The position numbers were made by a program, and so were the translations under genes. This document shows positions 1,576 through 60,977 of a DNA stretch of 64,000 bases, piece by piece (position 1 is the first letter of the stretch; every line of letters begins with the position of its first letter). The notes beneath the pieces are model-generated. The model ran no database searches and was not told the origin of the DNA. It saw nothing but the letters and a program-made list of their open reading frames with translations. The stretch is from assembly GCF_030013595.1 (NCBI RefSeq), contig NZ_CP122768.1; one strand, 5' to 3'. The stretch comes from Escherichia coli (lineage in GTDB: Bacteria > Pseudomonadota > Gammaproteobacteria > Enterobacterales > Enterobacteriaceae).

Positions 1576-2520
1576 ATGCTAACATTTTTTATTGGCGATT
1601 TATTGCCTATTATCGTAATCATGCTGTTGGGTTATTTTAGCGGCAGACGAGAAACTTTTTCAGAAGATCAAGCCCGGGCATTTAATAAACTGGTATTAAA
1701 CTACGCTCTTCCTGCGGCTCTATTTGTATCTATTACCCGAGCAAACAGGGAAATGATTTTTGCGGACACTCGTCTGACCCTTGTATCACTTGTGGTTATT
1801 GTCGGATGTTTCTTTTTCTCCTGGTTCGGTTGCTACAAATTTTTTAAACGTACTCATGCAGAAGCAGCAGTATGTGCATTAATTGCAGGTTCACCTACCA
1901 TTGGATTCCTGGGATTTGCAGTTCTCGATCCTATTTATGGTGATTCCGTATCAACAGGTTTAGTGGTAGCAATTATTTCAATTATCGTTAACGCAATTAC
2001 TATTCCTATTGGTCTGTATTTGCTGAATCCCTCCTCAGGAGCGGATGGTAAGAAGAATAGTAATCTGAGCGCATTAATTTCTGCGGCAAAGGAGCCAGTA
2101 GTATGGGCACCTGTTCTGGCAACGATCCTGGTGTTGGTTGGGGTAAAAATTCCGGCAGCATGGGACCCAACCTTTAATCTGATTGCGAAGGCTAACTCAG
2201 GGGTAGCGGTATTCGCTGCGGGGTTGACTCTGGCTGCACATAAATTCGAGTTCAGTGCCGAAATTGCTTATAACACCTTCCTGAAGCTAATTCTGATGCC
2301 ACTGGCGCTGCTTCTCGTTGGTATGGCATGTCATTTGAACAGCGAACATTTGCAGATGATGGTACTGGCAGGCGCCTTACCGCCGGCATTCTCCGGAATC
2401 ATTATTGCCAGCCGGTTTAATGTCTACACCCGCACTGGTACAGCGTCACTGGCTGTGAGCGTACTGGGCTTTGTCGTCACGGCTCCTTTGTGGATTTATG
2501 TCAGTCGACTGGTTTCATAA
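1576..2520 (+). CDS. yfdV: AEC-family membrane transporter YfdV
   Basis: 314-aa highly hydrophobic multi-helix ORF; synteny oxc-yfdV-yfdE. Confidence 0.8.
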
Positions 2521-2522
2521 TT

Positions 2523-2531
2523 AATCATGTT
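2523..2531. repeat. IS1 target-site duplication, left copy (aatcatgtt)
   Basis: Identical 9-mer immediately flanks both IS1 ends. Confidence 0.85.
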
Positions 2532-2546
2532 GGTAATGACTCCAAC

Positions 2547-3050
2547 TTACTGATAGTGTTTTATGTTCAGATAATGCCCGATGACCTTGTCATGCAGCTC
2601 CACCGATTTTGAGAACGACAGTGACTTCCGTCCCAGCCTTGCCAGATGTTGTCTCAGATTCAGGTTATGCCGCTCAATGCGCTGAGTATAACGCTTGCTG
2701 ATAACGTGCAGCTTTCCCTTCAGGCGTGATTCATACAGCGGCCAGCCATCCGTCATCCATACCACGACCTCAAAGGCCGACAGCAGGCTCAGAAGACGCT
2801 CCAGTGTGGCCAGAGTGCGTTCACCGAAGACGTGCGCCACAACCGTCCTCCGCATCCTGTCATACGCGTAAAACAGCCAGCGCTGACGTGATTTAGCACC
2901 GACGTAGCCCCACTGTTCGTCCATTTCAGCGCAGACAATCACATCACTGCCCGGTTGTATGCGCGAGGTTACCGACTGCGGCCTGAGTTTTTTAAGTGGC
3001 GGAAAATCGTGTTGAGGCCAACGCCAATAATGCGTGCACTGGCGCGACAT
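2547..3050 (-). CDS. insB: IS1 transposase InsB
   Basis: 167-aa ORF matching IS1 InsB, -1 frame relative to insA (InsAB' frameshift arrangement). Confidence 0.9.
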
Positions 3051-3244
3051 CCGACGCCATTCATGGCCATATCAATGATTTTCTGGTGCGTACCGGGCTG
3101 AGAGGCGGCGTAAGTGAACTGTAGTTGCCATGTTTTACGGCAGTGAGAGCAGAGATAGCGCTGATGTCCGGCGGTGCTTTTGCCGTTACGCACCACCCCG
3201 TCAGTAGCTGAACAGGAGGGACAGCTGATAGAAACAGAAGCCAC
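2969..3244 (-). CDS. insA: IS1 InsA (zinc-finger transposition inhibitor)
   Basis: 91-aa [43 protein letters not shown]... Confidence 0.9.
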
Positions 3245-3299
3245 TGGAGCACCTCAAAAACACCATCATACACTAAATCAGTAAGTTGGCAGCATCACC

Positions 3300-3308
3300 A
3301 ATCATGTT
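3300..3308. repeat. IS1 target-site duplication, right copy (aatcatgtt)
   Basis: Identical 9-mer to 2523..2531. Confidence 0.85.
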
Positions 3309-3370
3309 ATTGATTTTACATAAATGCCGAAGTGTCTTTTCACCTTCGGCTTTTTTCAAGGCATAAGCAA

Positions 3371-4516
3371 ATGACAAATAATGAATGCAAAGGGCCGTTT
3401 GAAGGCTTATTAGTTATCGATATGACACATGTCCTTAATGGACCTTTCGGAACTCAACTTCTTTGTAATATGGGCGCAAGGGTAATTAAAGTTGAGCCGC
3501 CGGGTCATGGTGATGATACCCGCACATTTGGTCCCTATGTGGATGGACAGTCACTCTATTACAGTTTTATTAATCATGGCAAAGAGAGTGTGGTTCTTGA
3601 TTTAAAGAATGATCACGATAAAAGTATATTTATAAATATGCTTAAACAAGCTGATGTATTAGCTGAGAATTTTCGCCCAGGTACAATGGAAAAACTGGGG
3701 TTTTCATGGGAAACGCTACAAGAAATCAACCCGCGTCTCATCTATGCTTCATCGTCAGGTTTTGGGCATACCGGCCCGCTAAAAGATGCTCCAGCCTACG
3801 ATACCATCATTCAGGCAATGAGCGGGATAATGATGGAAACAGGGTACCCTGATGCTCCGCCAGTGCGCGTGGGTACCTCTCTTGCGGATTTATGTGGCGG
3901 TGTCTATTTATTCAGTGGAATAGTGAGTGCACTTTATGGCCGCGAAAAGAGCCAGAGAGGGGCGCATGTCGATATAGCGATGTTTGATGCCACGCTGAGT
4001 TTTCTGGAGCATGGTCTGATGGCATATATTGCGACAGGGAAGTCACCACAACGCCTGGGAAATCGCCATCCCTACATGGCACCTTTTGATGTTTTTGATA
4101 CTCAGGATAAGCCGATTACTATTTGTTGTGGTAATGACAAGCTTTTTTCTGCGTTATGCCAGGCACTGGATCTGACGGAGCTGGTTGATGATCCCCGATT
4201 TATCAGCAATATTTTACGCGTACAAAACCAGGCTATTCTTAAACAATATATTGAGCGAACGTTAAAAACGCAGGCAGCTGAAGTTTGGTTAGCCAAAATA
4301 CATGAAGTTGGTGTGCCCGTCGCGCCGTTATTAAGTGTGGCTGAGGCCATTAATTTGCCACAAACTCAGGCGAGAAATATGTTGATTGAAGCCGGAGGAA
4401 TAATGATGCCAGGTAATCCGATAAAAATCAGCGGCTGCGCGGACCCGCATGTTATGCCGGGAGCGGCAACGCTCGACCAGCATGGGGAACAAATTCGCCA
4501 GGAGTTCTCATCATAA
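3371..4516 (+). CDS. yfdE: Family III CoA-transferase (acetyl-CoA:oxalate CoA-transferase YfdE)
   Basis: Translation MTNNECKGPFEGLLVIDMTHVLNGPFGTQLLCNMGARVIKVEPPG... is CaiB/BaiF family; start chosen at internal ATG of the 394-aa ORF. Confidence 0.8.
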   Translation: MTNNECKGPFEGLLVIDMTHVLNGPFGTQLLCNMGARVIKVEPPGHGDDTRTFGPYVDGQSLYYSFINHGKESVVLDLKNDHDKSIFINMLKQADVLAENFRPGTMEKLGFSWETLQEINPRLIYASSSGFGHTGPLKDAPAYDTIIQAMSGIMMETGYPDAPPVRVGTSLADLCGGVYLFSGIVSALYGREKSQRGAHVDIAMFDATLSFLEHGLMAYIATGKSPQRLGNRHPYMAPFDVFDTQDKPITICCGNDKLFSALCQALDLTELVDDPRFISNILRVQNQAILKQYIERTLKTQAAEVWLAKIHEVGVPVAPLLSVAEAINLPQTQARNMLIEAGGIMMPGNPIKISGCADPHVMPGAATLDQHGEQIRQEFSS

Positions 4517-13573: not shown

Positions 13574-13815
13574 AATGATCCATATTTATATTTTCTTCTC
13601 CAGATTGGCGATGCCAGTTGGCATGTTTTACCTACTTGTCTACATGGTTACTCGTTGGCGAGAACAGAGGCGGAATTGGGTACAATTGTCCGGGAATTAT
13701 TGTTATTTTTTATTGTATTGCCGTGTCGGGTGATAGGGCGTCGAGAATATCGTTGGATCTCGCCAGTGACGTCTGTTTCTGCTACAGTGCCCGTTTTACG
13801 GCAAACGGCTTGGGT

Positions 13816-14811
13816 ATGGCTTCATTAAAGGATGTCGCACGCCTGGCGGGAGTGTCGATGATGACAGTCTCCCGGGTGATGCATAATGCAGAATCTGTGC
13901 GTCCTGCAACGCGTAACCGCGTATTGCAGGCAATCCAGACCCTGAATTATGTTCCTGATCTTTCCGCCCGTAAGATGCGCGCTCAAGGACGTAAGCCGTC
14001 GACTCTCGCCGTGCTGGCGCAGGACACGGCCACCACTCCTTTCTCTGTTGATATTCTGCTTGCCATTGAGCAAACCGCCAGCGAGTTTGGCTGGAATAGT
14101 TTTTTAATCAATATTTTTTCTGAAGATGACGCTGCCCGCGCGGCACGTCAGCTGCTTGCCCACCGTCCGGATGGCATTATCTATACTACAATGGGGCTGC
14201 GACATATCACGCTGCCTGAGTCTCTGTATGGTGAAAATATTGTATTGGCGAACTGTGTGGCGGATGACCCAGCGTTACCCAGTTATATCCCTGATGATTA
14301 CACTGCACAATATGAATCAACACAGCATTTGCTCGCGGCGGGCTATCGTCAACCGTTATGCTTCTGGCTACCGGAAAGTGCGTTGGCAACAGGGTATCGT
14401 CGGCAGGGATTTGAGCAGGCCTGGCGTGATGCTGGACGAGATCTGGCTGAGGTGAAACAATTTCACATGGCAACAGGTGATGATCACTACACCGATCTCG
14501 CAAGTTTACTCAATGCCCACTTCAAATCGGGCAAACCAGATTTTGATGTTCTGATATGTGGTAACGATCGCGCAGCCTTTGTGGCTTATCAGGTTCTTTT
14601 GGCGAAGGGGGTACGTATCCCGAAGGATGTCGCCGTAATGGGCTTTGATAATCTGGTTGGCGTCGGGCATCTGTTTTTACCGCCGCTGACCACAATTCAG
14701 CTTCCACATGACATTATCGGGCGGGAAGCTGCATTGCATATTATTGAAGGTCGTGAAGGGGGAAGAGTGACGCGGATCCCTTGCCCGCTGTTGATCCGTT
14801 GTTCCACCTGA
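13816..14811 (+). CDS. cscR: LacI-family sucrose operon repressor CscR
   Basis: N-terminal HTH MASLKDVARLAGVSMMTVSRVMHN... plus periplasmic-binding-protein-like sugar-binding core; start set at internal ATG 13816. Confidence 0.8.
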   Translation: MASLKDVARLAGVSMMTVSRVMHNAESVRPATRNRVLQAIQTLNYVPDLSARKMRAQGRKPSTLAVLAQDTATTPFSVDILLAIEQTASEFGWNSFLINIFSEDDAARAARQLLAHRPDGIIYTTMGLRHITLPESLYGENIVLANCVADDPALPSYIPDDYTAQYESTQHLLAAGYRQPLCFWLPESALATGYRRQGFEQAWRDAGRDLAEVKQFHMATGDDHYTDLASLLNAHFKSGKPDFDVLICGNDRAAFVAYQVLLAKGVRIPKDVAVMGFDNLVGVGHLFLPPLTTIQLPHDIIGREAALHIIEGREGGRVTRIPCPLLIRCST

Positions 14812-14818
14812 TATTATG

Positions 14819-16252
14819 TTAACCCAGTTGCCAGAGTGCTCCATGTTGCAGCACAGCCACTCCGTGGGAGGCATAGAGCGACAGTTCCCGTTCTTCTGGC
14901 TGCGGATATATTCGGCTACTCATCACCGCCTCCCCGTCGTTAATAAATACTTCCACGGATGATGTATCGATAAATATCCTTAGGGCGAGCATGTCACCCT
15001 GCGGGAGGGGAATACTACGGTAGCCATCTAAATTCTCGTGTGGGTAATACCGCCACAAAACAAGTCGCTCAGATTGGTTATCAATATACAGCCGCATTCC
15101 AGCGCCGAGCTGTAATCCGTAATGTTCGGCATCACTGTTCTTCAGCGCCCACTGCAACTGAATCTCAACTGCTTGCGCGTTTTCCTGCAAAACATATTTA
15201 TTGCTGATTGTGCGGGGAGAGATAGATTGATGCTGCTGGCGTAACGACTCAGCTTCGTGTACCGGGCGTTGTAGGAGTTTGCCATTGCTCTCTGATAGCT
15301 CGCGCGCCAGCGTCATGCAGCCTGCCCAGCCTTCACGTTTTGAGGGCATTGGCGATTCCCACATATCCATCCAGCCGATAACAATACGCCGACCATCCTT
15401 CGCTACAAAGCTTTGTGGTGCATAAAAGTCATGCCCGTTATCAAGTTCAGTAAAATGCCCGGATTGTGCAAAAAGTCGTCCTGGCGACCACATTCCGGGT
15501 ATTACGCCACTTTGAAAGCGATTTCGATAACTGTATCCCTCGGCATTCATTCCCTGCGGGGAAAACATCAGATAATGCTGATCGCCAAGGCTGAAAAAGT
15601 CCGGACATTCCCACATATAGCTTTCACCCGCATCAGCGTGGGCCAGTACGCGATCGAAAGTCCATTCACGCAATGAACTGCCGCGATAAAGCAGGATCTG
15701 CCCCGTGTTGCCTGGGTCTTTCGCCCCGACTACCATCCACCATGTGTCGGCTTCACGCCACACTTTAGGATCGCGGAAGTGCATGATGCCTTCTGGTGGA
15801 GTGAGGATCACACCCTGTTTCTCGAAATGAATACCATCCCGACTGGTAGCCAGACATTGTACTTCGCGAATTGCATCGTCATTACCTGCACCATCGAGCC
15901 AGACGTGTCCGGTGTAGATAAGTGAGAGGACACCATTGTCATCGACAGCACTACCTGAAAAACACCCGTCTTTGTCATTCTCGTCTCCTGGCGCTAGCGC
16001 AATAGGCTCATGCTGCCAGTGGATCATATCGTCGCTGGTGGCATGTCCCCAGTGCATTGGCCCCCAGTGTTCGCTCATCGGGTGATGTTGATAAAACGCG
16101 TGATAACGATCGTTAAACCAGATCAGGCCGTTTGGATCGTTCATCCACCCGGCAGGAGGCGCGAGGTGAAAATGGGGATAGAAAGTGTTACCTCGGCGCT
16201 CGTGAAGTTTTGCTAGTGCGTTTTGCGCCGCATGCAATCGAGATTGCGTCAT
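14819..16252 (-). CDS. cscA: Sucrose-6-phosphate hydrolase / invertase CscA (GH32)
   Basis: GH32 signature WMNDPNGL near N-terminus; ~477 aa. Confidence 0.85.
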   Translation of the reverse strand: MTQSRLHAAQNALAKLHERRGNTFYPHFHLAPPAGWMNDPNGLIWFNDRYHAFYQHHPMSEHWGPMHWGHATSDDMIHWQHEPIALAPGDENDKDGCFSGSAVDDNGVLSLIYTGHVWLDGAGNDDAIREVQCLATSRDGIHFEKQGVILTPPEGIMHFRDPKVWREADTWWMVVGAKDPGNTGQILLYRGSSLREWTFDRVLAHADAGESYMWECPDFFSLGDQHYLMFSPQGMNAEGYSYRNRFQSGVIPGMWSPGRLFAQSGHFTELDNGHDFYAPQSFVAKDGRRIVIGWMDMWESPMPSKREGWAGCMTLARELSESNGKLLQRPVHEAESLRQQHQSISPRTISNKYVLQENAQAVEIQLQWALKNSDAEHYGLQLGAGMRLYIDNQSERLVLWRYYPHENLDGYRSIPLPQGDMLALRIFIDTSSVEVFINDGEAVMSSRIYPQPEERELSLYASHGVAVLQHGALWQLG

Positions 16253-16285
16253 TTTAATCATCCTGGTTAAGCAAATTTGGTGAAT

Positions 16286-16298
16286 TGTTAACGTTAAC
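16286..16298. promoter_or_regulatory. Candidate CscR operator copy 1 (TGTTAACGTTAAC, palindromic core GTTAACGTTAAC)
   Basis: Perfect 12-bp palindrome, present twice in the cscA/cscKB divergent intergenic region. Confidence 0.45.
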
Positions 16299-16349
16299 TT
16301 TTATAAAAATAAAGTCCCTTACTTTCATAAATGCGATGAATATCACAAA

Positions 16350-16362
16350 TGTTAACGTTAAC
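16350..16362. promoter_or_regulatory. Candidate CscR operator copy 2 (TGTTAACGTTAAC)
   Basis: Identical 13-mer 64 bp from copy 1. Confidence 0.45.
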
Positions 16363-16467
16363 TATGACGTTTTGTGATCGAATATGCATGTTTTAGTAAA
16401 TCCATGACGATTTTGCGAAAAAGAGGTTTATCACTATGCGTAAGTCAGATGAATTTAAGGGAAAAAA

Positions 16468-17382
16468 ATGTCAGCCAAAGTATGGGTTTTAGGGGATGCG
16501 GTCGTAGATCTCTTGCCAGAATCAGACGGGCGGCTACTGCCTTGTCCTGGCGGCGCGCCAGCTAACGTTGCGGTGGGAATCGCCAGATTAGGCGGAACAA
16601 GTGGGTTTATAGGTCGGGTCGGTGATGATCCTTTTGGTGCGTTAATGCAAAGAACGCTGCTAACTGAGGGTGTCGATATCACGTATCTGAAGCAAGATGA
16701 ATGGCACCGGACATCCACGGTGCTTGTCGATCTGAATGATCAAGGAGAACGTTCATTTACGTTTATGGTCCGCCCCAGTGCCGATCTTTTTTTAGAGACG
16801 ACAGACTTGCCCTGCTGGCGACATGGCGAATGGTTACATCTCTGTTCAATTGCGTTGTCTGCCGAGCCTTCGCGTACCAGCGCATTTACTGCGATGACGG
16901 CGATCCGGCATGCCGGAGGTTTTGTCAGCTTCGATCCCAATATTCGTGAAGATCTATGGCAAGACGAGCATTTGCTCCGCTTGTGTTTGCGGCAGGCGCT
17001 ACAACTGGCGGATGTCGTCAAGCTCTCGGAAGAAGAATGGCGACTTATCAGTGGAAAAACACAGAACGATCGGGATATATGCGCGCTGGCAAAAGAGTAT
17101 GAGATCGCCATGCTGTTGGTGACTAAAGGTGCAGAAGGGGTGGTGGTCTGTTATCGAGGACAAGTTCACCATTTTGCTGGAATGTCTGTGAATTGTGTCG
17201 ATAGTACTGGGGCGGGAGATGCGTTCGTTGCCGGGTTACTCACAGGTCTGTCCTCTACGGGGTTATCTACAGATGAGAGAGAAATGCGACGAATTATTGA
17301 TCTTGCTCAACGTTGCGGAGCGCTTGCAGTAACGGCGAAAGGGGCGATGACAGCGCTGCCATGTCGACAAGAACTGGAATAG
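16468..17382 (+). CDS. cscK: Fructokinase CscK (PfkB/ribokinase family)
   Basis: 304-aa ORF MSAKVWVLGDAVVDLLPE... with C-terminal GAGDAF motif. Confidence 0.85.
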   Translation: MSAKVWVLGDAVVDLLPESDGRLLPCPGGAPANVAVGIARLGGTSGFIGRVGDDPFGALMQRTLLTEGVDITYLKQDEWHRTSTVLVDLNDQGERSFTFMVRPSADLFLETTDLPCWRHGEWLHLCSIALSAEPSRTSAFTAMTAIRHAGGFVSFDPNIREDLWQDEHLLRLCLRQALQLADVVKLSEEEWRLISGKTQNDRDICALAKEYEIAMLLVTKGAEGVVVCYRGQVHHFAGMSVNCVDSTGAGDAFVAGLLTGLSSTGLSTDEREMRRIIDLAQRCGALAVTAKGAMTALPCRQELE

Positions 17383-17453
17383 TGAGAATTAAACGGCGAA
17401 GTCGCTCTTATCTCTAAATAGGACGTGAATTTTTTAACGACAGGCAGGTAATT

Positions 17454-18701
17454 ATGGCACTGAATATTCCATTCAGAAATGCGTACTATCGTTTGGCATC
17501 CAGTTACTCATTTCTCTTTTTTATTTCCTGGTCGCTGTGGTGGTCGTTATACGCTATTTGGCTGAAAGGACATCTAGGATTAACAGGGACGGAATTAGGT
17601 ACACTTTATTCGGTCAACCAGTTTACCAGCATTCTATTTATGATGTTCTACGGCATCGTTCAGGATAAACTCGGTCTGAAGAAACCGCTCATCTGGTGTA
17701 TGAGTTTCATTCTGGTCTTGACCGGACCGTTTATGATTTACGTTTATGAACCGTTACTGCAAAGCAATTTTTCTGTAGGTCTAATTCTGGGGGCGCTCTT
17801 TTTTGGCCTGGGGTATCTGGCGGGATGCGGTTTGCTTGACAGCTTCACCGAAAAAATGGCGCGAAATTTTCATTTCGAATATGGAACAGCGCGCGCCTGG
17901 GGATCTTTTGGCTATGCTATTGGCGCGTTCTTTGCCGGTATATTTTTTAGTATCAGTCCCCATATCAACTTCTGGTTGGTCTCGCTATTTGGCGCTGTAT
18001 TTATGATGATCAACATGCGTTTTAAAGATAAGGATCACCAGTGCATAGCGGCGGATGCGGGAGGGGTAAAAAAAGAGGATTTTATCGCAGTTTTCAAGGA
18101 TCGAAACTTCTGGGTTTTCGTCATATTTATTGTGGGGACGTGGTCTTTCTATAACATTTTTGATCAACAACTCTTTCCTGTCTTTTATGCAGGTTTATTC
18201 GAATCACACGATGTAGGAACGCGCCTGTATGGTTATCTCAACTCATTCCAGGTGGTACTCGAAGCGCTGTGCATGGCGATTATTCCTTTCTTTGTGAATC
18301 GGGTAGGGCCAAAAAATGCATTACTTATCGGTGTTGTGATTATGGCGTTGCGTATCCTTTCCTGCGCGTTGTTCGTTAACCCCTGGATTATTTCATTAGT
18401 GAAGCTGTTACATGCCATTGAGGTTCCACTTTGTGTCATATCCGTCTTCAAATACAGCGTGGCAAACTTTGATAAGCGCCTGTCGTCGACGATCTTTCTG
18501 ATTGGTTTTCAAATTGCCAGTTCGCTTGGGATTGTGCTGCTTTCAACGCCGACTGGGATACTCTTTGACCACGCAGGCTACCAGACAGTTTTCTTCGCAA
18601 TTTCGGGTATTGTCTGCCTGATGTTGCTATTTGGCATTTTCTTCCTGAGTAAAAAACGCGAGCAAATAGTTATGGAAACGCCTGTACCTTCAGCAATATA
18701 G
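17454..18701 (+). CDS. cscB: Sucrose:H+ symporter CscB (LacY-like MFS)
   Basis: 415-aa 12-TMS ORF; downstream of cscK. Confidence 0.85.
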   Translation: MALNIPFRNAYYRLASSYSFLFFISWSLWWSLYAIWLKGHLGLTGTELGTLYSVNQFTSILFMMFYGIVQDKLGLKKPLIWCMSFILVLTGPFMIYVYEPLLQSNFSVGLILGALFFGLGYLAGCGLLDSFTEKMARNFHFEYGTARAWGSFGYAIGAFFAGIFFSISPHINFWLVSLFGAVFMMINMRFKDKDHQCIAADAGGVKKEDFIAVFKDRNFWVFVIFIVGTWSFYNIFDQQLFPVFYAGLFESHDVGTRLYGYLNSFQVVLEALCMAIIPFFVNRVGPKNALLIGVVIMALRILSCALFVNPWIISLVKLLHAIEVPLCVISVFKYSVANFDKRLSSTIFLIGFQIASSLGIVLLSTPTGILFDHAGYQTVFFAISGIVCLMLLFGIFFLSKKREQIVMETPVPSAI

Positions 18702-33950: not shown

Positions 33951-34025
33951 GGGTCAGTCGTATAAAGGTCATTACGGAAGGCTGTTAACCTTCTTATCGT
34001 GGTTCGAGTCCACGCTGTCCCGCCA
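33951..34025 (+). tRNA. Candidate phage-encoded tRNA (anticodon GTT, Asn-like); atypical D-arm and one acceptor-stem mismatch
   Basis: Manual fold: acceptor GGGTCAG/CTGTCCC, anticodon stem GAAGG/CCTTC with loop CTGTTAA, T-arm CGTGG-TTCGAGT-CCACG, 3' GCCA. Confidence 0.45.
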
Positions 34026-34030
34026 AATAT

Positions 34031-34106
34031 GCTGGTTTAGCTCCAATGGTAGAGCGGTCGCCTTGTAAGCGAATGGGTAGCGGTTCAAGTCCGTTAACCA
34101 GCACCA
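34031..34106 (+). tRNA. Candidate phage-encoded tRNA (anticodon TGT, Thr-like)
   Basis: Manual fold: acceptor GCTGGTT/AACCAGC, D-arm GCTC-CAATGGTA-GAGC, anticodon loop CTTGTAA, T-arm AGCGG-TTCAAGT-CCGTT, 3' ACCA. Confidence 0.5.
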
Positions 34107-34348: not shown

Positions 34349-34672
34349 ATGAAGATGCCAGAAAAACATGACCTGTTAGCCGCCATTCTCGCGGCAAAGG
34401 AACAAGGCATCGGGGCAATCCTTGCGTTTGCAATGGCGTACCTTCGCGGCAGATATAATGGCGGTGCGTTTACAAAAACAGTAATCGACGCAACGATGTG
34501 CGCCATTATCGCCTGGTTCATTCGTGACCTTCTCGACTTCGCCGGACTAAGTAGCAATCTCGCTTATATAACGAGCGTGTTTATCGGCTACATCGGTACT
34601 GACTCGATTGGTTCGCTTATCAAACGCTTCGCTGCTAAAAAAGCCGGAGTAGAAGATGGTGGAAATCAATAA
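34349..34672 (+). CDS. S: Holin S (class I, lambda-type)
   Basis: 107-aa [44 protein letters not shown]... with TM segments and dual start MKM. Confidence 0.9.
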
Positions 34673-35132
34673 TCAACGTAAGGCGTTCCTCGATATGCTG
34701 GCGTGGTCAGAGGGAACTGATAACGGACGGCAGAAAACCAGAAATCATGGTTATGACGTCATTGTAGGCGGAGAGCTATTCACTGATTACTCCGATCATC
34801 CTTGCAAACTTGTCACGCTAAACCCCAAACTCAAATCAACAGCAGCCGGACGTTACCAGCTTCTTTCCCGTTGGTGGGATGCCTATCGTAAGCAGCTTGG
34901 CTTGAAAGATTTCTCTCCGAAAAGCCAGGACGCAGTTGCACTGCAGCAGATTAAAGAGCGTGGCGCTTTACCTATGATTGATCGCGGTGATATCCGTCAG
35001 GCAATCGACCGTTGCAGCAATATCTGGGCTTCACTGCCGGGCGCTGGTTATGGTCAGTTCGAGCATAAGGCTGACAGCCTGATTGCAAAATTCAAAGAAG
35101 CAGGCGGAGCGGTCAGAGAGATTGAGGTATGA
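34656..35132 (+). CDS. R: Endolysin R (lytic transglycosylase, lambda-type)
   Basis: 158-aa [42 protein letters not shown]... Confidence 0.9.
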
Positions 35133-35596
35133 GCAGAGTAACCGCGATTATCTCCGCTCTGGTTATTTGCATCATCGTCTGCCTGTCATGGGCTGTTAAT
35201 CATTACCGTGATAACGCCATCGCCTACAAAGAACAGCGAGATAAAAAAGTCAGTGAGCTGAAGCAGGCGACCGCCACCATTACTGACATGCAGCAGCGCC
35301 AGCGTTCTGCTGATGCGCTCGATGCTAAATACACGAAGGAGTTAGCTGATGCGAAAGCTGAAAATGATGCTCTTCGGCGCAAGCTTGATAATGGTGGTCG
35401 GGTGTTCGTCAAAGGAAAATGCCCTGTGCCATCCTCAGCCGAAACCTCCGGCGCCTCCGGCATGGGCAATGATGCCACCGTCGAACTCTCTCCAGTTGCT
35501 GGACGAAACGTTCTCGGTGTCCGGGACGGAATTATCCGCGACCAAACAGCACTGAGAACGCTTCAGGAATACATCAGGACGCAATGCCTTCGATGA
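35129..35596 (+). CDS. Rz: Spanin inner-membrane subunit Rz
   Basis: 155 aa with N-terminal TM segment and coiled coil; overlaps R stop. Confidence 0.85.
35349..35555 (+). CDS. Rz1: Spanin outer-membrane lipoprotein Rz1 (embedded in Rz, +1 frame)
   Basis: [21 protein letters not shown]... lipobox-like signal and proline-rich body, nested within Rz. Confidence 0.6.
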
Positions 35597-37403: not shown

Positions 37404-37892
37404 ATGGCAGCACCAAAGGGCAACCGATTTTGGGAGGCCCGCAGTAGTCATGGGCGAAATCCTAAATTCGAATCGCCTGAGGCGCTGTGGGCTGCTTGTT
37501 GTGAATACTTCGAGTGGGTAGAAGCTAACCCGCTATGGGAGATGAAGGCGTTCTCGTATCAGGGTGAAGTGATACAAGAGCCTATCGCCAAGATGCGAGC
37601 GATGACCATTACCGGACTCACTCTGTTCATTGATGTGACGCTTGAAACATGGCGCACATATCGCCTGCGAGAAGATTTATCTGAAGTCGTTACGCGAGCA
37701 GAGCAGGTCATCTACGACCAGAAATTCTCTGGCGCAGCCGCTGACCTTCTCAACGCTAACATCATCGCCCGTGATTTGGGCCTCAAAGAGCAGTCGCAAG
37801 TTGAAGACGTGACACCTGATAAGGGAGATCGCGATAAGCGACGCTCTCGTATCAAGGAGCTATTCAACCGTGGAACTGGACGCGATTCTTGA
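37404..37892 (+). CDS. Terminase small subunit (P22 gp3-like)
   Basis: 162-aa [53 protein letters not shown]...; precedes the large terminase. Confidence 0.8.
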
Positions 37893-39369
37893 TAACCTGA
37901 GCGACGAAGAGCAAATCGAGTTGCTCGAGCTACTCGAAGAAGAAGAGAACTACCGGAACACACACCTGCTATATGAATTTACGCCATACAGCAAACAGCG
38001 TGAGTTCATCGACGCCGGGCATGACTATCCAGAGCGCTGTTTTATGGCTGGTAACCAGCTTGGTAAGTCATTTACTGGTGCTGCTGAAGTCGCGTTTCAC
38101 CTTACCGGGCGTTATCCGGGCACAAAAGGCTATCCGGCTGATGGTAAATATGGTGGGGAGTGGAAAGGTAAGCGTTTCTATGAGCCTGTTGTCTTCTGGA
38201 TTGGCGGCGAGACAAACGAGACTGTAACCAAAACGACTCAACGCATCCTGTGCGGTCGTATCGAAGAGAATGATGAGCCTGGCTACGGCTCCATACCGAA
38301 AGAGGACATCATTAGCTGGAAGAAGTCTCCTTTCTTTCCGAACCTTGTTGATCACCTTCTGGTTAAGCATCACACGGCTGATGGCGTTGAAGATGGCATT
38401 TCAATCTGCTACTTCAAGCCATACTCGCAAGGTCGTGCTCGCTGGCAGGGTGACACAATCCACGGAGTGTGGTTTGACGAAGAACCACCATACAGCATTT
38501 ATGGCGAAGGGCTTACCCGTACCAACAAATACGGGCAATTCTCAATCCTGACGTTTACCCCGCTGATGGGGATGTCTGACGTTGTTACCAAGTTCCTGAA
38601 GAATCCCAGCAAGTCGCAGAAAGTGGTCAACATGACCATCTATGACGCTGAGCACTATACCGACGAGCAGAAAGAGCAAATCATCGCATCCTATCCAGAG
38701 CATGAGAGAGAGGCTCGAGCTCGCGGTATTCCTACGATGGGTAGTGGTCGAATCTTCCAGATACCGGAAGAGACGATTAAGTGTCAGCCGTTCGAGTGTC
38801 CTGATCACTTCTACGTAATTGGCGGGATGGATTTCGGATGGGATCACCCTCAGGCGCAGGTTCAGCTTTGGTGGGATAAGGACGCAGACACAATCTACGT
38901 TTCGCGCGTGTGGAAGGCGAAAGAAAAGACAGCTGTTCAGGCGTGGGGAGCCGTTAAACCATGGGCGCATAAAGTGCCAACCGCATGGCCCCATGACGGA
39001 AACCAGCACGAGAAGGGCGGCGGTGAGCAGCTTAAAGGGCAGTACGCGGACGCTGGTTTTATGATGTTGCAGGAGCATGCGACATGGCCTGATGGCGGTA
39101 ACGCTGTGGAGCCTGGAATCACTGAATTGCGCGACATGATGCTTGATGGTCGCTTCAAAGTATTCAACACCTGTGAGCCATTCTTTGAGGAGTTCCGCCT
39201 CTATCACCGTGATGAAAACGGGAAGATCGTCAAGCTTAACGACGACGTGCTATCCGCCGTTCGCTATGCATACATGATGCGCCGCTTCGCAAAAATGATG
39301 CGCGACATCAAAAAACCAAAAGAGAAAAAGATACCAGCCCCAATCAGGCCCATCGCACGGAGAACTTAA
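37870..39369 (+). CDS. Terminase large subunit (P22 gp2-like)
   Basis: 499-aa ORF with ATPase and nuclease regions; overlaps the small subunit end. Confidence 0.85.
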
Positions 39370-41535
39370 ATGGCCGACGAAAACAGACTCAATTCCATTC
39401 TGTGTAAGTTTGACGCAGACTGGATGGCGAGCGATGAAGCCAGAACCGAGGCGACAAATGACCTGTATTTTAGCCGAGTGTCGCAATGGGATGACTGGCT
39501 ATCAAACTACACCACCCTGCAATATCGCGGACAATTCGATGTTGTCCGCCCGGTTGTCAGGAAGTTGGTCGCAGAGATGCGCCGGAACCCTATCGACGTT
39601 CTCTTCCGACCAAAAGACGGTGCTAATCCTGATGCTGCCGATGTGCTGATGGGGATGTATCGTACTGATATGCGCCATAACACGGCAAAAATTGCCGTTA
39701 ATGTTGGCGTTCGTGAGCAGATAGAGTCAGGCGTTGGTGCATGGCGTCTGGTCACGCAGTACGAAGACAACGACCCAACAAGCAACAATCAGGTAATCCG
39801 ACGCCTGCCAATCCATGAAGCCTGCTCACACGTCATATGGGACGCCAACAGCAAGCAGATGGATAAGAGCGACGCTAAGCACTGCACGGTGATTAACGCC
39901 TTGTCACGCAATGGCTGGAAAGAGTTCGCAGAGGATTACGGTATTGATCCTGACACCTTGCCATCTTTCCAGAATCCGAACGATACATGGCTGTTTCCGT
40001 GGGTATCGAATGATGTCGTCTACGTCGCTGAGTATTACGAGGTCGAAGAGAAGAAGGAGAAGGTCTTCATCTACCGCGACCCGCTGACAGGTGAGCCGGT
40101 CAGCTATTACCAGCAGGATATCAAAGACGTCATCGACGACCTGGCTAATCGTGGATTCATTAAGGTAGCAGAGCGCAAGGTGAAGCGTCGGCGTGTGTAT
40201 AAGTCGATCATCACCTGCACGCAGATACTGAAAGACCGAGAAAAGATAGCCGGAGAGCATATCCCAATCGTTCCAGTGTATGGAGAATGGTCATTCGCTG
40301 GTGACAAGGAGTGCTACGAAGGAGTGGTAAGGCTGACGAAAGACGGTCAACGCCTTCGTAACATGATCATGTCATTCAACGCCGATATTGTTGCTCGTTC
40401 ACCGAAGAAGAAACCGACCTTCTTCCCTGAGCAAATCGAAGGCTACGAATACATGTACGGTGGAAATGATGACTATCCGTACTATCTGCAGAACAGGACC
40501 GATGAAAACGGTAACGACCTGCCGATTGGTCCAATCTCCTACATGGAAAACCCTGAAGTGCCGCAAGCCAACGCTTATATGCTTGAGGCTGCCACCAACG
40601 CAGTGAAAGAGGTGGCTAGTCTTGGTGTGGATGCGCAGGCAGCAAACTCTCAGGTCGCTTTCGATACCGTCAATCAACTGAACATGCGGGCAGACCTTGA
40701 GACATACGTGTTTCAGGATAACCTGGCTACCGCAATGCGACGTGATGGCGAGATTTATGCCTCAATGGTCAACGATATTTATGACGTTCCTCGTCATGTA
40801 ACGCTGACACTTGAAGATGGAAGCGAGAAAGACGTTCAACTCTATGCGCAAGTTGTCGATTACCAGTCCGGCAATGTGGTCACACTCAACGACATTCGTG
40901 GTCGCTATGAGTGCTATACAGACGTTGGACCATCCTTCCAGAGTATGAAGGAACAGAACCGCGCAGAGATTCAGGAGTTACTCACCAAGGTTCCGCAAGG
41001 TACTCCAGAGTTCCAGATGCTGATGCTGCAATACTTCACGCTCCTTGACGGTAAAGGCGTCGAGATGATGCGAGAGTACGCGAACAAGCAACTGGTGATG
41101 ATGGGGCTGAAGAAACCAGAAACACCTGAAGAGATGGAGATGGTACAACAGGCACAACAACAGCCGCAGCAGCCATCAGCAGAGCAAATTCAGGCGCAGG
41201 GTATCCTTCTGCAAGGTCAGGCTGAATTGCTCAAGGCAGAGAACCAACAGGCACAGATTCAGGTTGAAGCCGCCAAGGTTGAAGCCCAAAACCAACTCAA
41301 CGCCGCGAAGATTGCAGAAATCTTCAACAATATGGACCTCGACAAGCAGGCAGAACTGCGTGAGTACCTCAAGCTAGTAGGTCAATTCCAGCAACAGCGC
41401 AGCAAAGATGCTCGTGCTAACGCTGAGCTGCTTCTTAAAGATGCAGACCAGAATCATTCACAACGCATGGATTTCGCGAATCTTATGCGTCAAGTTCAAA
41501 TCCCCTCCGGCGGAGTAGCCGAGACACCTCAATAA
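39370..41535 (+). CDS. Portal protein (P22 gp1-like)
   Basis: 721-aa ORF with Gln-rich C-terminal coiled-coil barrel region typical of P22-like portals. Confidence 0.85.
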
Positions 41536-41548
41536 GAGAGAGTTAATC

Positions 41549-42460
41549 ATGGACCAAACCACCGACATTCAGGCTTCTGAAGAATTAACCCTGCCCGGCA
41601 ATCATGCAGCGGCATCTGCTGATGGCTTAGTTGTCGATAATGCCAACGACAACGCAGGTCAGGAAGAAGGCTTTGAGATTGTCCTGAAAGACGATGAGAA
41701 ACCAAAACAAGACCCGGCAACTAATGCTGAATTTGCCCGTCGCCGCATCGAACGCAAACGCCAGCGTGAGCTTGAGCAGCAGATGGAAGCGGTTAAGCGT
41801 GGAGAGTTGCCGGAGCACCTGCGGGTGAACCCTGAGTTACCAAAACAACCAGACCCTAACGATTATCTTTCCGAAGATGCACTGGCTAAGTACGACTATG
41901 ACCAGAGCCGCGCACTGGCTGCCTTCCAGCAGGCAAACAGTGAATGGCAGATCAAGGCTATGGACGCACGAAGCCAGGCTGTCGCCGAGCAGGGCCGCAA
42001 AACTCAGGAGTTCACCCAGCAATCAGCGCAATACGTCGAGGCCGCCCGTAAGCACTACGATGCAGCGGAAAAGCTTAATATCCCTGACTATCAGGAGAAA
42101 GAGGATGCATTCATGCAACTGGTGCCGCCAGCAGTCGGTGCCGACATCATGCGCCTCTTCCCGGAGAAATCCGCCGCTCTCATGTATCACCTTGGTGCTA
42201 ATCCTGAGAAAACACGCCAGTTGCTGGCGATGGACGGGCAATCCGCGCTGATTGAACTCACTCGACTGTCAGAACGTTTAACTCTCAAGCCTCGAGCAAA
42301 GCCTGTTTCAGAAGCCCCGTTACCTGATGAACCCATTCAGGGACACGCTGTTGCTGCAAATATCTCTGCGATTGAAAAGCAGATGGAAGCGGCAGCAAAC
42401 AAAGGGGATGTAGAGACGTACCGCAAGCTCAAGGCGCAACTGAATAAAGGAATTCGATAA
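41549..42460 (+). CDS. Scaffolding protein (P22 gp8-like)
   Basis: 303-aa acidic alpha-helical protein between portal and coat. Confidence 0.75.
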
Positions 42461-43755
42461 TGGCATTAAATGAAGGTCAACTGGTCACGTATGCTCTGGA
42501 TGAAATCATCGAAACCGTCCAGAACCTGACGCCAATGGCGTCCAAAGTGACAAAATACACCCCTCCGGCAGAATCCATGCAGCGTTCAAGCAACACCGTG
42601 TGGATGCCTGTTGAGCAGGAAGCGCCAACCCAGACTGGCTGGGATTTAACTGGCAACGCAACCGGGATTCTGGAACTCTCCGTGAAATGCAACATGGGCG
42701 ATCCGGATAACGATTTCTTCGAGCTTCGTGCAGATGACCTGCGTGATGAGCGTTCTTACCGTCGCCGCATCCAGGCATCCGCCAAAAAACTGGCGAATAA
42801 CATTGAGTCAGCGATTGCCAAACAGGCAACTGAAATGGGCTCGCTTGTTGTTCACGATACCCGCGCAATTGGTCCATCTACTGGCCTTTCTGGCTGGGAT
42901 TTTGTGTCTGATGCAGAGCGCCTGATGTTCTCCCGTGAGCTAAACCGCGATATGGGCATCAGTTACTTCCTGAACCCTGACGATTACCGCAAAGCAGGCC
43001 GCAACCTGGTAGATGGTGACATCTTCGGGCGCGTTACTGAAGACGCGTATCACAACGGTACTATTCAGCGTCAGATTGCTGGCTTTGATGAAATTCTTCG
43101 CTCACCGAAACTTCCCGCAGTTACCAAGTCAACCGCTACTGGTGTAACTGTTTCTGGTGCGCAGAAGTTTAAGCCGCAGGCATACACCCTTGATACCGAT
43201 GGTAACAAAGAGAACGTCGATAACCGTGTTGCAACGGTGACCGTATCCTCCACCACCGGATTTAAGCGCGGCGACAAAATCAGCTTCACTGGTGTGAAAT
43301 TCCTGTCTCAGATGGCGAAGAACGTGCTGACTGATGATGCGACTTTCTCAATCACCCGTGTGATCGATGGTACTCACATCGAAATCACGCCGAAGCCGAT
43401 TGCGCTGGATGACGCGTCACTGACAAAAGAAGAGAAGGCTTACGCTAACGTAAACACCTCTCTTGCTGATACCACTCCGGTAAACGTTCTGAACGTGGCA
43501 ACAACCACCGCTAACGTGTTCTGGGCTGATGACTCAATCCGTCTGCTGTCTCAGCCGATCCCGGTAACCCATGAACTGTTTGCTGGCATGAAAACGTCTT
43601 CCTTCAGCATTCCTGGTATTGGTGTTAACGGCATCTTCGCAACGCAGGGGGATATCAACACTCTGTCTGGCAAGTGCCGTATTGCTGTGTGGTATTCAGC
43701 ATGTGCTGTACGACCAGAGGCAATTGGTGTTGGTCTGCCTAACCAGACCGCGTGA
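42460..43755 (+). CDS. Major coat protein (P22 gp5-like, HK97 fold)
   Basis: 431-aa [36 protein letters not shown]...; followed by a strong terminator. Confidence 0.85.
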
Positions 43756-55376: not shown

Positions 55377-57272
55377 ATGACAGACATTACAGCCAATGTG
55401 ATCGTATCGATGCCTTCGCAACTCTTCACTATGGCGCGTTCTTTTAAAGCCGTAGCCAATGGCAAAATTTATATAGGGAAAATTGACACTGACCCGGTAA
55501 ATCCTGAAAACCAGATTCAGGTTTATGTGGAGAATGAAGATGGCTCTCACGTTCCTGTTTCGCAACCAATAATCATTAACGCTGCCGGATATCCGGTATA
55601 TAACGGACAGATTGCCAAGTTCGTAACTGTGCAAGGCCATTCTATGGCTGTTTATGATGCGTATGGGGCGCAGCAGTTCTATTTTCCTAATGTGCTGAAG
55701 TATGACCCTGACCAATTAAGACAGGAGCTATCTAAGCAGACTGATGGTTATTTTTTTAACCTTCCTCAAGGTGGTGTACTACATGATGCAATAAAGTATG
55801 TAACACCAGAAATGTATATCAATACATCTTCAGATATTACATCTGCTATACAAAGTGCATTTGACAATGGAAATGTGATTGATATGTCAGGTAGAGACTG
55901 GACTCTTGAGAGAACAATCCATGTCGGTGATGGCACTGAAATAAAGTTAGGCGCATCAACAATTACATGTCAACTTGGTTCTAAACCTGCTTTTGACTTT
56001 AGAGGAACAGATAAAGGACTCCTGGTCACAGGAGGTAAGTTTATTGGTAATTGCTCTGCAGTATTTTATTTCCAAGGGACTACTGCTTTCCCTTCTCAAT
56101 CAGGTCACTATGCAAGAAAAATAAGAATATACGGCACAGATGCTACTTCAGATACGGATGAGATAATTGATTTCATCTATATGAAGGACGCTGTAAGGCA
56201 AGTTTTTATTGATTCATGTTATGCATATGTAAAAAACGGCATTACTGCAAGCGGGAAATGTGTGGAGGTGAAAGTCCAAAAAAGCATATTCAACTCAGGA
56301 ACTTCCGATCAAAGTTCTTCTAGGATAAGTCTAAATTCACCGTCAGGAGCAAGTTATTACAACGAAGGTTGGCATTTTAGTGATTGTACAATTGATGGAG
56401 TTGGAAAATCATTTAATGTTACCGATATATATTCGTTAACCATCAATGGAGGATTTATCGGTGGTGAGGTTGCGTTTGGACAGCCAATAACAACACATTG
56501 CCGTGAGATCGTACTCGGTGGTGGATTAATCATGAAAGGGCGTGTTACTTTCACGCCAACCGTACAATATGACTACAGGGCCAACATATCTCCTTCTCTT
56601 ATGTTTGGTAATGGTGGAGTTGGAAACGTGGTCCTTAATGCAGGTGCTTCAGGCATCAACGTTAGCACAAAACTTGAAAGTTCTGGTGTTTCAGGAGGAA
56701 CTGGCGTTATTGTTAATGAAGGATGTTCTAATGTTAACGTTGACCTGAGCGCTGATAATACGTATGAAAGACTGGCGTCATTCAATGGTTACGGACCAAG
56801 GTGTTCCGCTTTGATACGTAACTACATGGGAAGCTCTCACCCAATTTATACAGAGCGACCATTAAAGATTATATCATCGCCTGTCACTGACGACGCTGGT
56901 TCTCTGCAGGTTATGAGTTTTGTAAATATACCAGCAGGAAGCTATATTGTTGGTTCTGTTATGTCTGAGGTGAAAGTGACTGCACCAAAAGGTTCTAGAG
57001 GGAAAATTTCTCTTACCATTTCACTGAGTGGATTAACAGGCACATCTTCACAGGCGCTTATTGTAAATATTCCTGCCGGAATGGTTACCCCATCCGGTTT
57101 AGGTTGGGCTTCAAATGTTATTAGACCTCAGTTTGCGGCTGGAATAATGAGTATTGAAATACCATTTTATACAACCACAGACATTGCAGAATCCTCATTA
57201 TCTGTATCTAATTTCTCAGGAAATACAGCAATTGTTGGACTAAACTCTTACATTGGATATTTTTTGATATGA
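55377..57272 (+). CDS. Tailspike protein: conserved P22/Sf6/HK620-type head-binding domain + divergent beta-helix receptor-binding domain
   Basis: N-terminal ~113 aa [60 protein letters not shown]...VLKYDPDQ; remainder Gly/Ser/Thr/Asn-rich and repetitive. Confidence 0.85.
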
Positions 57273-57348: not shown

Positions 57349-58539
57349 TTATTCATTTTCATCAAGCCAGTCCGCCCACCACTGCATCATTTCTCTGCGC
57401 TTGTCTAGATACTGAGCATGGTTGTAAATCCCACGCACAGATCCGCCGTTGGCATGTGCCAGTTGCACTTCAATAGCGTCAGCAGGCCATTCGTGCTCGT
57501 TCATAATTGTGCTGAATTCATGCCTGAATCCGTGACCGCTTTCCAGACCCTCATAGCCGATTTGTTTGATCACAAGCAATACCGCGTTCTCGCAGATTGG
57601 CTTCTTCTTATCGTTGCGCCCTGCAAAAACAAACTCTGATACTGGTTTGGTGATGGAGCTTAACGTAGTGAGAAGTTCAACCACCTGGTCTGACATCGGG
57701 ACCACATGAATTTTGCGTCCCTTCATCACGCTGGCGTCGATGGTGATAATCCTGTTTTCAAAATCGACGTTCTTCCATTGCATGGAGCGAAGCTCTTTCG
57801 TTCTTAGGGCTGTATAACGTAAAACTTTTGTCGCAATAAGCGATACGATACTTCCTGAAAATGTTGCCAGTGCTTTGTTGAATGCCGGGATCTGGTCTGC
57901 AGGAAGAAACGGGAAGTTCTTCTTGCGGTATCCTTTCATGGCGTCTGCAAGGTCAGGTGCCGGGTTATATTTAGCCCTTCCGGTGACAATAGCGTAACGG
58001 AAAACCTCTCCGCATCTTCTGCGGGCTTTGTTGGCTCGCTCCATTGCACCGCGATCTTCAAACCTGCGGATTACTTCAAGAAGTTGCATCGGCTCAATAT
58101 CCTGAATTTCAAGACCGCCGATGATGGGTAAAATGTCGTCATCAAACATTTTGGCAAGTTCAGTCGCATACCCTACAGACCAGACTTGCTTCTTGTGCTC
58201 GTACCATTCCTTGTAAATGGCGCTAAAGGAATTGTTGTTAGACGAAGCCTTTTTCGCTTTTACCGGATCGATGCCAACCGAGATGTCTTTCCTCGCAGTC
58301 CATGCTTTATCCCTTGCCTCTTGCAAAGTCATAAGCGGATATTTTCCGACGGTCAGGATTTTCTCCTTACCGTCAATCTTGTAGCGAAGCTGCCATACCT
58401 TTTTCCCGGATACAGGGACATAAAGGTACAATCCATTACCATCGAGAAGGCGGTATGGTTTTTCTTTCGGCTTTGCTGCTTCAATCTGCTTAACGGTGAG
58501 CATGGGTAAAAATCCGGTGGGTAAAATTATTTTATCCAC
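57349..58539 (-). CDS. intS: Tyrosine integrase, P4-type (IntS-like); start possibly at internal Met 58503
   Basis: ...MLTVKQIEAAKPKEKPYRLLDGNGLYLYV... with C-terminal catalytic region (HGFRH ... Y); directly adjacent to argW. Confidence 0.9.
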   Translation of the reverse strand: MDKIILPTGFLPMLTVKQIEAAKPKEKPYRLLDGNGLYLYVPVSGKKVWQLRYKIDGKEKILTVGKYPLMTLQEARDKAWTARKDISVGIDPVKAKKASSNNNSFSAIYKEWYEHKKQVWSVGYATELAKMFDDDILPIIGGLEIQDIEPMQLLEVIRRFEDRGAMERANKARRRCGEVFRYAIVTGRAKYNPAPDLADAMKGYRKKNFPFLPADQIPAFNKALATFSGSIVSLIATKVLRYTALRTKELRSMQWKNVDFENRIITIDASVMKGRKIHVVPMSDQVVELLTTLSSITKPVSEFVFAGRNDKKKPICENAVLLVIKQIGYEGLESGHGFRHEFSTIMNEHEWPADAIEVQLAHANGGSVRGIYNHAQYLDKRREMMQWWADWLDENE

Positions 58540-58664
58540 TTTTTACCCGTCATGGAGTGCGGCTGTCAACGATCTGACGCGAACCATTACGAACTGTGAA
58601 TCTACGGAAGGCTTGATATTCAGGGGATTTTGCGGACTGGTACGGATGGGAGCGAACTGATAAA

Positions 58665-58679
58665 TGGTGTCCCCTGCAG
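58665..58679. repeat. Prophage attR core: 15-bp direct repeat (tggtgtcccctgcag) within the argW 3' end
   Basis: Exact copy of 19143..19157. Confidence 0.7.
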
Positions 58680-58739
58680 GAATCGAACCTGCAATTAGCC
58701 CTTAGGAGGGGCTCGTTATATCCATTTAACTAAGAGGAC
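58665..58739 (-). tRNA. argW: tRNA-Arg (anticodon CCU), argW; prophage attR at its 3' end
   Basis: Reverse complement reads GTCCTCTTAGTTAAATGGATATAACGAGCCCCTCCTAAGGGCTAATTGCAGGTTCGATTCCTGCAGGGGACACCA. Confidence 0.9.
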
Positions 58740-58814
58740 AATGCGGCATGAGTATACCCGCTAATGGACTGCGGGGTAAGTACGCTGCCGCTCGATTGCT
58801 TAAACCCTCGCCAT

Positions 58815-59747
58815 TTATGCCGGGTTTTTATCATTTTTCTTAATGTTTTCCGCACGTTCTGCTTTTTGGCGTGCTTCTGCTTTGCGCTTGTTGCTCATGT
58901 CGTTGCGGATCTGTGCATGACTCATTAACGCGAAGATAAAGGTGCCGCCGCAGATGTTCCCCGCTAAAGTAGGTAGTGCGAAGGGCCAGATGAAATCGCT
59001 CCAGTGCAGCGTACCGTTAAACACCAGATAGAGGATTTCAACAGAACCGACAACGATGTGAGTGGTGTCACCCAGGGCAATAAGCCAGGTCATCAATATA
59101 ATCACCACAATCTTTGCCGCACCCGCTGCAGGAAACATCCATACCATAGTGGCGATCAGCCAGCCGGAAATGATCGCGTTGGCAAACATCTCGCTGGGGG
59201 TGTTCTTCATCACATCCATGCCGATTTTGACAAATGCATCGCGAGTTTCTTCATTGAAGATTGGCATATATTCAAATGCCCACGCCGCAATACCTGTCCC
59301 GAGAATATTACCCAGCAGCACGACGCCCCATAACCGCATAAGTAAGCCAACGTTGCTCATTGTCGGTTTTTGCATGACGGGTAGTACCGCAGTCACGGTG
59401 TTTTCGGTAAATAATTGCTGGCGGGCCATAATGACGATAATAAAACCAAAGGTATAACCGAGATTCTCCAGCAAGAAGCTGCCCGGCACGCCTTCCAGTT
59501 CGACATGAAATATCCCTTTTGCCAGTAATGAAGCGCCCATCGACAGACCCGCCGCAATGGCTGACCACAGTAGTGCCATTGCGTCGCGTTCCAGCTCTTT
59601 TTCACCATCCTGGCGGATATGCTCATGAATTGCCATCGCCCGGGAGGGGAGTCGGTCTTCATCTATTTCTATTTTTTTGCCGCGCTCTTTTTCTTCGCTC
59701 TCAACTTCAATTTCGTCGCTGTGTTGATCAATTTTGTCGTTGTCCAT
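58815..59747 (-). CDS. yfdC: Formate/nitrite transporter-family inner membrane protein YfdC
   Basis: Polytopic membrane ORF; start set at internal Met MDNDKIDQHSDEIE... of the 349-aa ORF. Confidence 0.8.
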   Translation of the reverse strand: MDNDKIDQHSDEIEVESEEKERGKKIEIDEDRLPSRAMAIHEHIRQDGEKELERDAMALLWSAIAAGLSMGASLLAKGIFHVELEGVPGSFLLENLGYTFGFIIVIMARQQLFTENTVTAVLPVMQKPTMSNVGLLMRLWGVVLLGNILGTGIAAWAFEYMPIFNEETRDAFVKIGMDVMKNTPSEMFANAIISGWLIATMVWMFPAAGAAKIVVIILMTWLIALGDTTHIVVGSVEILYLVFNGTLHWSDFIWPFALPTLAGNICGGTFIFALMSHAQIRNDMSNKRKAEARQKAERAENIKKNDKNPA

Positions 59748-60040
59748 GGTCTCTTCTCTTGAATTAGCACGTATAGCTAAAGCGTAGCGGCTTTTTTGCT
59801 CGCAACTGGCGGGAGTTACTCTGAAAATGTAGAAAAGGCCGCGTTTGCCTTTTTCTGTTTCCATAGAATCAAGTAGCCTACAGGGCGGCGATTACCAGGC
59901 TATGATCAAATCAGCAAATCAGGGCGTCTGGACATCAGTTGACGTGCTGTTACAATCGCCCACACCTAAACAGGCGGATACGGTATCGTTCCGTCATGGA
60001 TGGCAAACTGCATAAGCCATAAAAAAACAGGGAGACATTT

Positions 60041-60796: not shown

Positions 60797-60804
60797 GAAA
60801 CAAA

Positions 60805-60840
60805 TAAAAAAGGTGAGTCGCAAAACTCACCTTTTTTGTT
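60805..60840 (+). terminator. Rho-independent terminator after mlaA (A-run/T-run flanked)
   Basis: aggtgagt-cgcaaa-actcacct hairpin followed by TTTTTT. Confidence 0.75.
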
Positions 60841-60977
60841 GTTATCCCTCAATTACCACAAGTAAAAGGAGATAAACCGACAATGACCCGGACGTAATGA
60901 TGTAAAAATACTGATGTTCGTCATTGACTATTTCCGATATTCAGTCGTTGAAAAATCAAAAAACTGGAAAAATAATT

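Follow-up and report, generated by a model that had tools for sequence, protein, structure and literature searches.

Few bacterial insertion sequences have been studied as thoroughly as IS1, and its simple insertion into intergenic DNA, with the typical 9-bp target-site duplication, is routine. In the classical work on gal and lac, IS1 was polar in both orientations, and this polarity was Rho-dependent. The IS1F copy of E. coli K-12 MG1655 (4518472-4519239) is, like the copy described here, 768 bp long and has the same IRL-insA-A6C-insB'-IRR arrangement. The two align without gaps and are identical at 737 of 768 positions (96.0%), but they differ by 31 substitutions and occupy different genomic sites, and insB is open in the present copy whereas the K-12 IS1F insB7 is annotated as a pseudogene. 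The IS1A and IS1B isoforms have in common with it the terminal sequences (GGTAATGACTCC... and ...GGCAGCATCACC), the length of 768 bp and the programmed frameshift, with target duplications of 8-10 bp; the IS1A/IS1B copies found at the same locus in other strains show 93.4-94.0% nucleotide identity to it. RefSeq labels the copies identical to ours generically as 'IS1 family transposase', in contrast to 'IS1-like element IS1A/IS1B family transposase'. Neither the element nor this kind of event is new. The operon concerned, yfdXWUVE (yfdX-frc-oxc-yfdV-yfdE), has been described as EvgA-activated, and yfdE was reported to be co-expressed within it (PMC3720670, citing Masuda and Church 2002, 2003).

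In the window (the whole 64-kb stretch of E. coli DNA that was analysed), an element of this kind lies in the spacer between yfdV and yfdE. As the sequence-only reading had proposed, the interval 2523-3308 consists of an intact IS1 (2532-3299, minus strand) and both of its target duplications, with the two terminal inverted repeats present and insA and insB both intact. Pattern searches and the identity to K-12 IS1F assign it to an IS1F-like isoform. The insB-proximal repeat IRR, GGTAATGACTCCAACTTACTGAT, faces yfdV (2532-2554, plus strand) and the insA-proximal repeat IRL, GGTGATGCTGCCAACTTACTGAT, faces yfdE (3277-3299, minus strand); these 23-bp ends agree at 20 of 23 positions. An IS1-end pattern matched twice in the whole window, at the two ends of this element, with 0 matches expected by chance.

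The transposase genes are antisense to the yfdV/yfdE operon, an orientation that the sequence-only reading had not given. The insA gene (2969-3244, minus strand) starts with GTG and codes for a 91-residue repressor and DNA-binding protein with a zinc ribbon and a helix-turn-helix, and the insB' frame (2547-3050, minus strand) is open over 167 codons from its first ATG. The A6C motif (AAAAAAC) of the programmed -1 frameshift from insA to insB' is located at 2987-2993 on the minus strand (IS1 positions 307-313), its first A being the third position of an insA codon, and the InsAB' fusion is predicted from this sequence to be made by -1 frameshifting at the motif. The conceptual fusion of 232 residues matched the NCBIfam IS1 transposase model NF033558 over its full length with 242.8 bits, for a cut-off of 100, and gave end-to-end matches to the Pfam families Zn_ribbon_InsA (PF03811), HTH_Tnp_IS1 (PF12759) and DDE_Tnp_IS1 (PF03400, 1-131 of 131). 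The length of 768 bp, the inverted repeats of about 23 bp of the GGT(A/G)ATG type, the overlapping insA and insB', the protein domains and the target-site duplication are all those of the IS1 family. A promoter-like site for insA, CTGCCA-16-TATGAT, overlaps IRL (3292-3265, minus strand).

On re-inspection the flanking 9-mers were indeed identical, both reading AATCATGTT (2523-2531 on the left and 3300-3308 on the right), as found by sequence reading and pattern search. This 9-mer occurs twice in the 64-kb window, each time abutting one IS1 end, and the probability of a chance identity at a fixed position is about 4e-6. IS1 copies at the yfdV-yfdE locus of various strains have duplications of 8, 9 or 10 bp. 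The order of the junction is the yfdV stop codon TAA (2518-2520), the dinucleotide TT, AATCATGTT, IS1, AATCATGTT, 62 bp of spacer and the ATG of yfdE at 3371, so that the IS1 end lies 11 nt past the yfdV stop codon. The target is AT-rich, with 71% A+T over 49 bp and seven of nine positions in the duplication.

The two flanking genes are intact and co-oriented on the plus strand, and their location within the EvgA-regulated operon agrees with the description of yfdXWUVE in the literature (PMC3720670). The yfdV gene (1576-2520) codes for an AEC-family transporter of 314 residues (PF03547, 270 bits) that is 100% identical to the K-12 protein over its full length. The yfdE gene (3371-4516) codes for a family III CoA-transferase of 381 residues (PF02515, 382 bits), acetyl-CoA:oxalate CoA-transferase by its published function (PMC3720670), which is full length and differs from the K-12 protein at 7 residues. 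At codon 103 of yfdE (window position 3678), proline is found in the window and in K-12 and leucine in the pig isolate HCP5S3_I2, the only amino-acid difference between the window and this isolate across yfdV and yfdE. The window begins inside oxc, with frc, yfdX and the EvgA binding sites lying outside it, the latter upstream; its open reading frames are collinear with the annotation of this locus in HCP5S3_I2 and in K-12, which gives the gene order frc-oxc-yfdV-yfdE. Downstream of yfdE are evgS and evgA, convergent with yfdE, and then emrKY, as in K-12.

We compared the locus with IS1-free alleles, as the sequence-only reading had suggested. When 2532-3308, that is IS1 and one 9-mer, was removed in silico, the central 120 bp matched exactly the yfdV-yfdE junction of HCP5S3_I2, and the entire reconstructed spacer of 73 bp was the same as in K-12 MG1655; the IS-free alleles carry a single copy of AATCATGTT. 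HCP5S3_I2 is the closest genome, with a backbone about 99.9% identical to the window: of five shared blocks, four show 99.89-99.96% identity over about 20 kb, and the fifth (58664-64000) shows 99.65%, with a single mismatch and a single gap. The other differences between the two are restricted to mobile elements, namely the IS1 of the window, an IS4 that HCP5S3_I2 carries between cscA and cscK, and the island at argW.

Queries of 400 bp spanning the left and the right junction were run against 5,426 complete E. coli genomes, and no genome contained this IS1 junction; the queries returned only IS1 copies at other positions of the locus that the search tool had joined. The reconstructed empty site was covered in one piece in 5,381 of the same 5,426 genomes, and a 30-nt query over the left junction had no match in the JGI metagenome contigs. 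We rejected a composite transposon or a rearrangement, as the 64-kb window holds a single IS1, with an intact duplication and collinear flanks. Because the junction is absent from the 5,426 genomes and 5,381 of them have an uninterrupted spacer, the insertion is, on this comparison of sequences, a recent and strain-specific simple transposition, later than the split from the nearest sequenced relative. The proposal of a recent simple insertion was therefore borne out by the exact empty site in K-12 and HCP5S3_I2, by the missing junction in other genomes and by the identity of the element to other copies.

These other copies were found in at least 55 records, each 100% identical to the present IS1 over 768 bp, and those listed all came from pigs. 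The pig E. coli strains concerned include enterotoxigenic (ETEC) and edema-disease isolates, among them UMNF18, O139:H1 W13-16, O141:H4 P13-6, the ETEC17xx/40xx series and HCP5S3_I2. The identical copies sit on chromosomes and on plasmids, HCP5S3_I2 having one of each, and none of those in the pig strains is located in the yfdV-yfdE spacer. Among the records listed there were up to 22 IS1-matching places per record, all isoforms counted, and a copy with at least 99% identity was present in 150 of 9,595 IS1-positive records. This distribution suggests a host-associated and currently active IS1F-like sublineage in pig E. coli, among the records listed. The copy in the window appears active itself, because its frames and ends are intact, its duplication is fresh and many 100% identical copies occupy different sites in related strains. 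On this evidence, an apparently functional copy of an IS1F-like element circulating in pig-associated E. coli jumped into the AT-rich 73-bp spacer with the usual 9-bp duplication, its source probably being a chromosomal or plasmid copy within the same lineage.

The insertion point falls between the yfdV stop codon and a native terminator-like structure that the sequence-only reading had not noticed. This structure (3326-3356, plus strand, same sequence in K-12) is a hairpin, GCCGAAGTG-loop-CACCTTCGGC (3326-3350), with nine pairs, one bulge and a 6-nt loop, directly followed by a T6 tract (3351-3356) that ends 15 nt short of the yfdE ATG. RNA folding gave a centroid energy of -12.4 kcal/mol, more stable than that of shuffled sequence (z = -2.25); the consensus terminator scan had missed the hairpin, apparently owing to the bulge in the stem. 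The presence of a hairpin inside an operon described as co-transcribed suggests partial termination or a 3'-end stabiliser of the yfdV mRNA, from which the IS1 would cut yfdV off. Since these 15 nt are too few to hold a promoter past the hairpin, yfdE would have to be transcribed through the spacer; the terminator-like hairpin makes the extent of yfdV-yfdE co-transcription uncertain. A published map of K-12 3' ends has no entry at yfdV, the operon being probably uninduced in that study, and a text search of the literature gave no 3'-end data for the spacer hairpin. An Rfam scan of 2200-3700 returned only sub-threshold chance hits, with no known RNA disrupted.

What the insertion does to yfdE was left between two outcomes in the sequence-only reading, polarity and outward promoter activity. 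EvgA-driven transcripts that run past yfdV would have 768 nt of untranslated sequence, antisense to IS1, and then the hairpin ahead of them before they reach yfdE, and the expected result would be transcriptional polarity, with EvgA-dependent yfdE expression lowered and frc, oxc and yfdV unaffected. IS1 was reported to contain a transcription terminator of its own (Hubner et al. 1987, as cited in PMC12095673). The consensus scan found no sigma-70-like promoter on the operon-sense strand within IS1, and the sole promoter site that it reported inside the element was the region of the own insA promoter, on the opposite strand. Over about 400 nt (2560-2959), the operon-sense IS1 RNA is C-rich and G-poor, with C/G ratios of 1.05-1.71, and resembles in its base composition the sites where Rho loads. 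We consider reduced yfdE expression the likeliest effect, with a probability of roughly 0.6, because no consensus promoter was found within IS1 in the sense direction, its RNA is similar in composition to Rho sites, a terminator within it has been reported and its polarity is classical. Any added polar effect may be smaller than these points suggest, because the native hairpin and T6 may limit co-transcription of yfdE even without IS1.

A rival reading is that yfdE is functionally unaffected by the insertion, either because most yfdV transcripts already terminate at the native hairpin and yfdE is hardly expressed in the first place, or because read-through of IS1 is efficient. The hairpin, canonical-looking and directly upstream of yfdE in K-12 as in the window, speaks for it. 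However, yfdE was reported to be co-expressed with the rest of the operon on EvgA activation (PMC3720670), and the short distance between the T-tract and the ATG implies some native read-through, which 768 nt of untranslated RNA should lower. We regard an unaffected yfdE as rather unlikely, yet it takes most of the probability that is left once polarity and outward promoter activity have had their share, chiefly in the form of no measurable effect.

Outward promoter activity would come from a hybrid promoter, with a -35-like element in IRL and a -10-like element in the flank, that drives low and EvgA-independent yfdE expression. The inverted repeat of IS1 is known to carry an outward -35 box (PMC8764528, PMC9330008), and in IRL the plus strand reads TTGGCA (3286-3291, five of six matches) 16 nt before TATTGA (3308-3313); a TGn of the extended -10 type stands in front of the latter (TGnTATTGA, 3305-3313). 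Against this, the candidate -10 has three of six matches and lacks the conserved final T, the consensus promoter scan did not report the hybrid (3286-3313), and a transcript starting near 3320 would meet the hairpin and T6 within about 10 nt. Moreover, IS1 insertions without an optimally placed -10 left expression unchanged or lowered it in the cases of ugd and osmB (PMC8764528). A working hybrid promoter is thus improbable, and polar reduction of EvgA-dependent yfdE expression stays the preferred reading.

IS1 was found in the yfdV-yfdE locus of at least eight other complete genomes. Five different sites are involved, three within yfdV, one at the 5' end of yfdE and one in the spacer, and a separate duplication of 8-10 bp accompanies each. 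This count is a lower bound, since the junction queries favour copies in the same orientation. The spacer copy, in GTEN_23 (NZ_CP113486.1), is IS1A-like with 94.0% identity to ours and occupies the same 73-bp spacer with both flanking genes intact, but it is inserted at the T-tract of the hairpin, 49 bp downstream of our site, with an 8-bp duplication CTTTTTTC, and in the opposite orientation, its transposase being co-directional with the operon. Judged by its sequence and position, it is an independent event. In strains FFFEB2, LR-33, O177:H21 and APEC IMT5155, four independent IS1A/IS1B insertions, flanked by duplications of 9-10 bp, interrupt either yfdV (three sites) or the 5' end of yfdE; the evgS gene of LR-33 also has a pseudogene annotation, with an internal stop. 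An apparent bias to co-orientation in the first four insertions found at the locus proved to be an artefact of detection, as opposite-strand pieces were not joined by the search and the GTEN_23 copy is in the opposite orientation.

These copies, at five sites in eight other genomes, together with an IS1 insertion in yfdV that reached 21% in a sorbitol-evolved laboratory population (PMC7407084), could be taken as signs of a preferred target or of selected loss of yfdV/yfdE function, a reading we hold very improbable: the about 59,000 chromosomal IS1 places in the collection, if spread uniformly, give about 26 per 2.2 kb of a 5-Mb chromosome versus the eight genomes observed, and the spacer is uninterrupted in 5,381 of the 5,426 genomes. 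On this rough expectation an insertion hot spot was rejected. Equally improbable is a non-neutral insertion that would, in a lineage of the pig gut, uncouple yfdE from the acid response under EvgA and, with the other IS1 hits, make the distal half of the operon a repeated target of adaptive loss; yfdV would then be parted from its 3' hairpin, and a Rho-sensitive RNA stretch of 768 nt would come to precede yfdE.

As a lineage-specific marker, the insertion cleanly distinguishes the source strain from HCP5S3_I2, and the two strains form a natural pair of alleles for the polarity of IS1 and for the role of the yfdV-yfdE hairpin. It also points to an IS1F-like isoform, apparently active and confined to pig E. 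coli among the records listed. Beyond strain annotation, its import is small.

Elsewhere in the window, a sucrose-utilisation (csc) cluster at 13618-18701 adjoins dsdA, where K-12 has dsdX and dsdC. Collinearity with the HCP5S3_I2 annotation assigns to it a LacI-type regulator, cscA, a kinase and an oligosaccharide MFS transporter; the IS4 of HCP5S3_I2 lies between cscA and the kinase gene cscK and is missing from the window. A P22-like prophage of about 39.5 kb (19163-58663) adjoins tRNA-Arg(CCT) (58665-58739, argW), where HCP5S3_I2 carries another island, about 12.7 kb long, with integrase, toprim-domain, ogr/Delta-like and P2-family capsid genes. The best phage matches of the prophage, APC_JM3.2, IME10 and Louie, cover only about 50% of it at about 95% identity, and none of the complete E. 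coli genomes covers 80% or more of the part that was searched (18700-43000). Its terminase, portal, scaffold and coat genes are at 37870-43755, an open reading frame of tailspike size is at 55377-57272 and the integrase gene is at 57349-58539 on the minus strand. The prophage also carries two tRNA genes, Asn(GTT) and Thr(TGT), which lie 5 bp apart at 33951-34106, upstream of a pair of open reading frames at 34656-35596.
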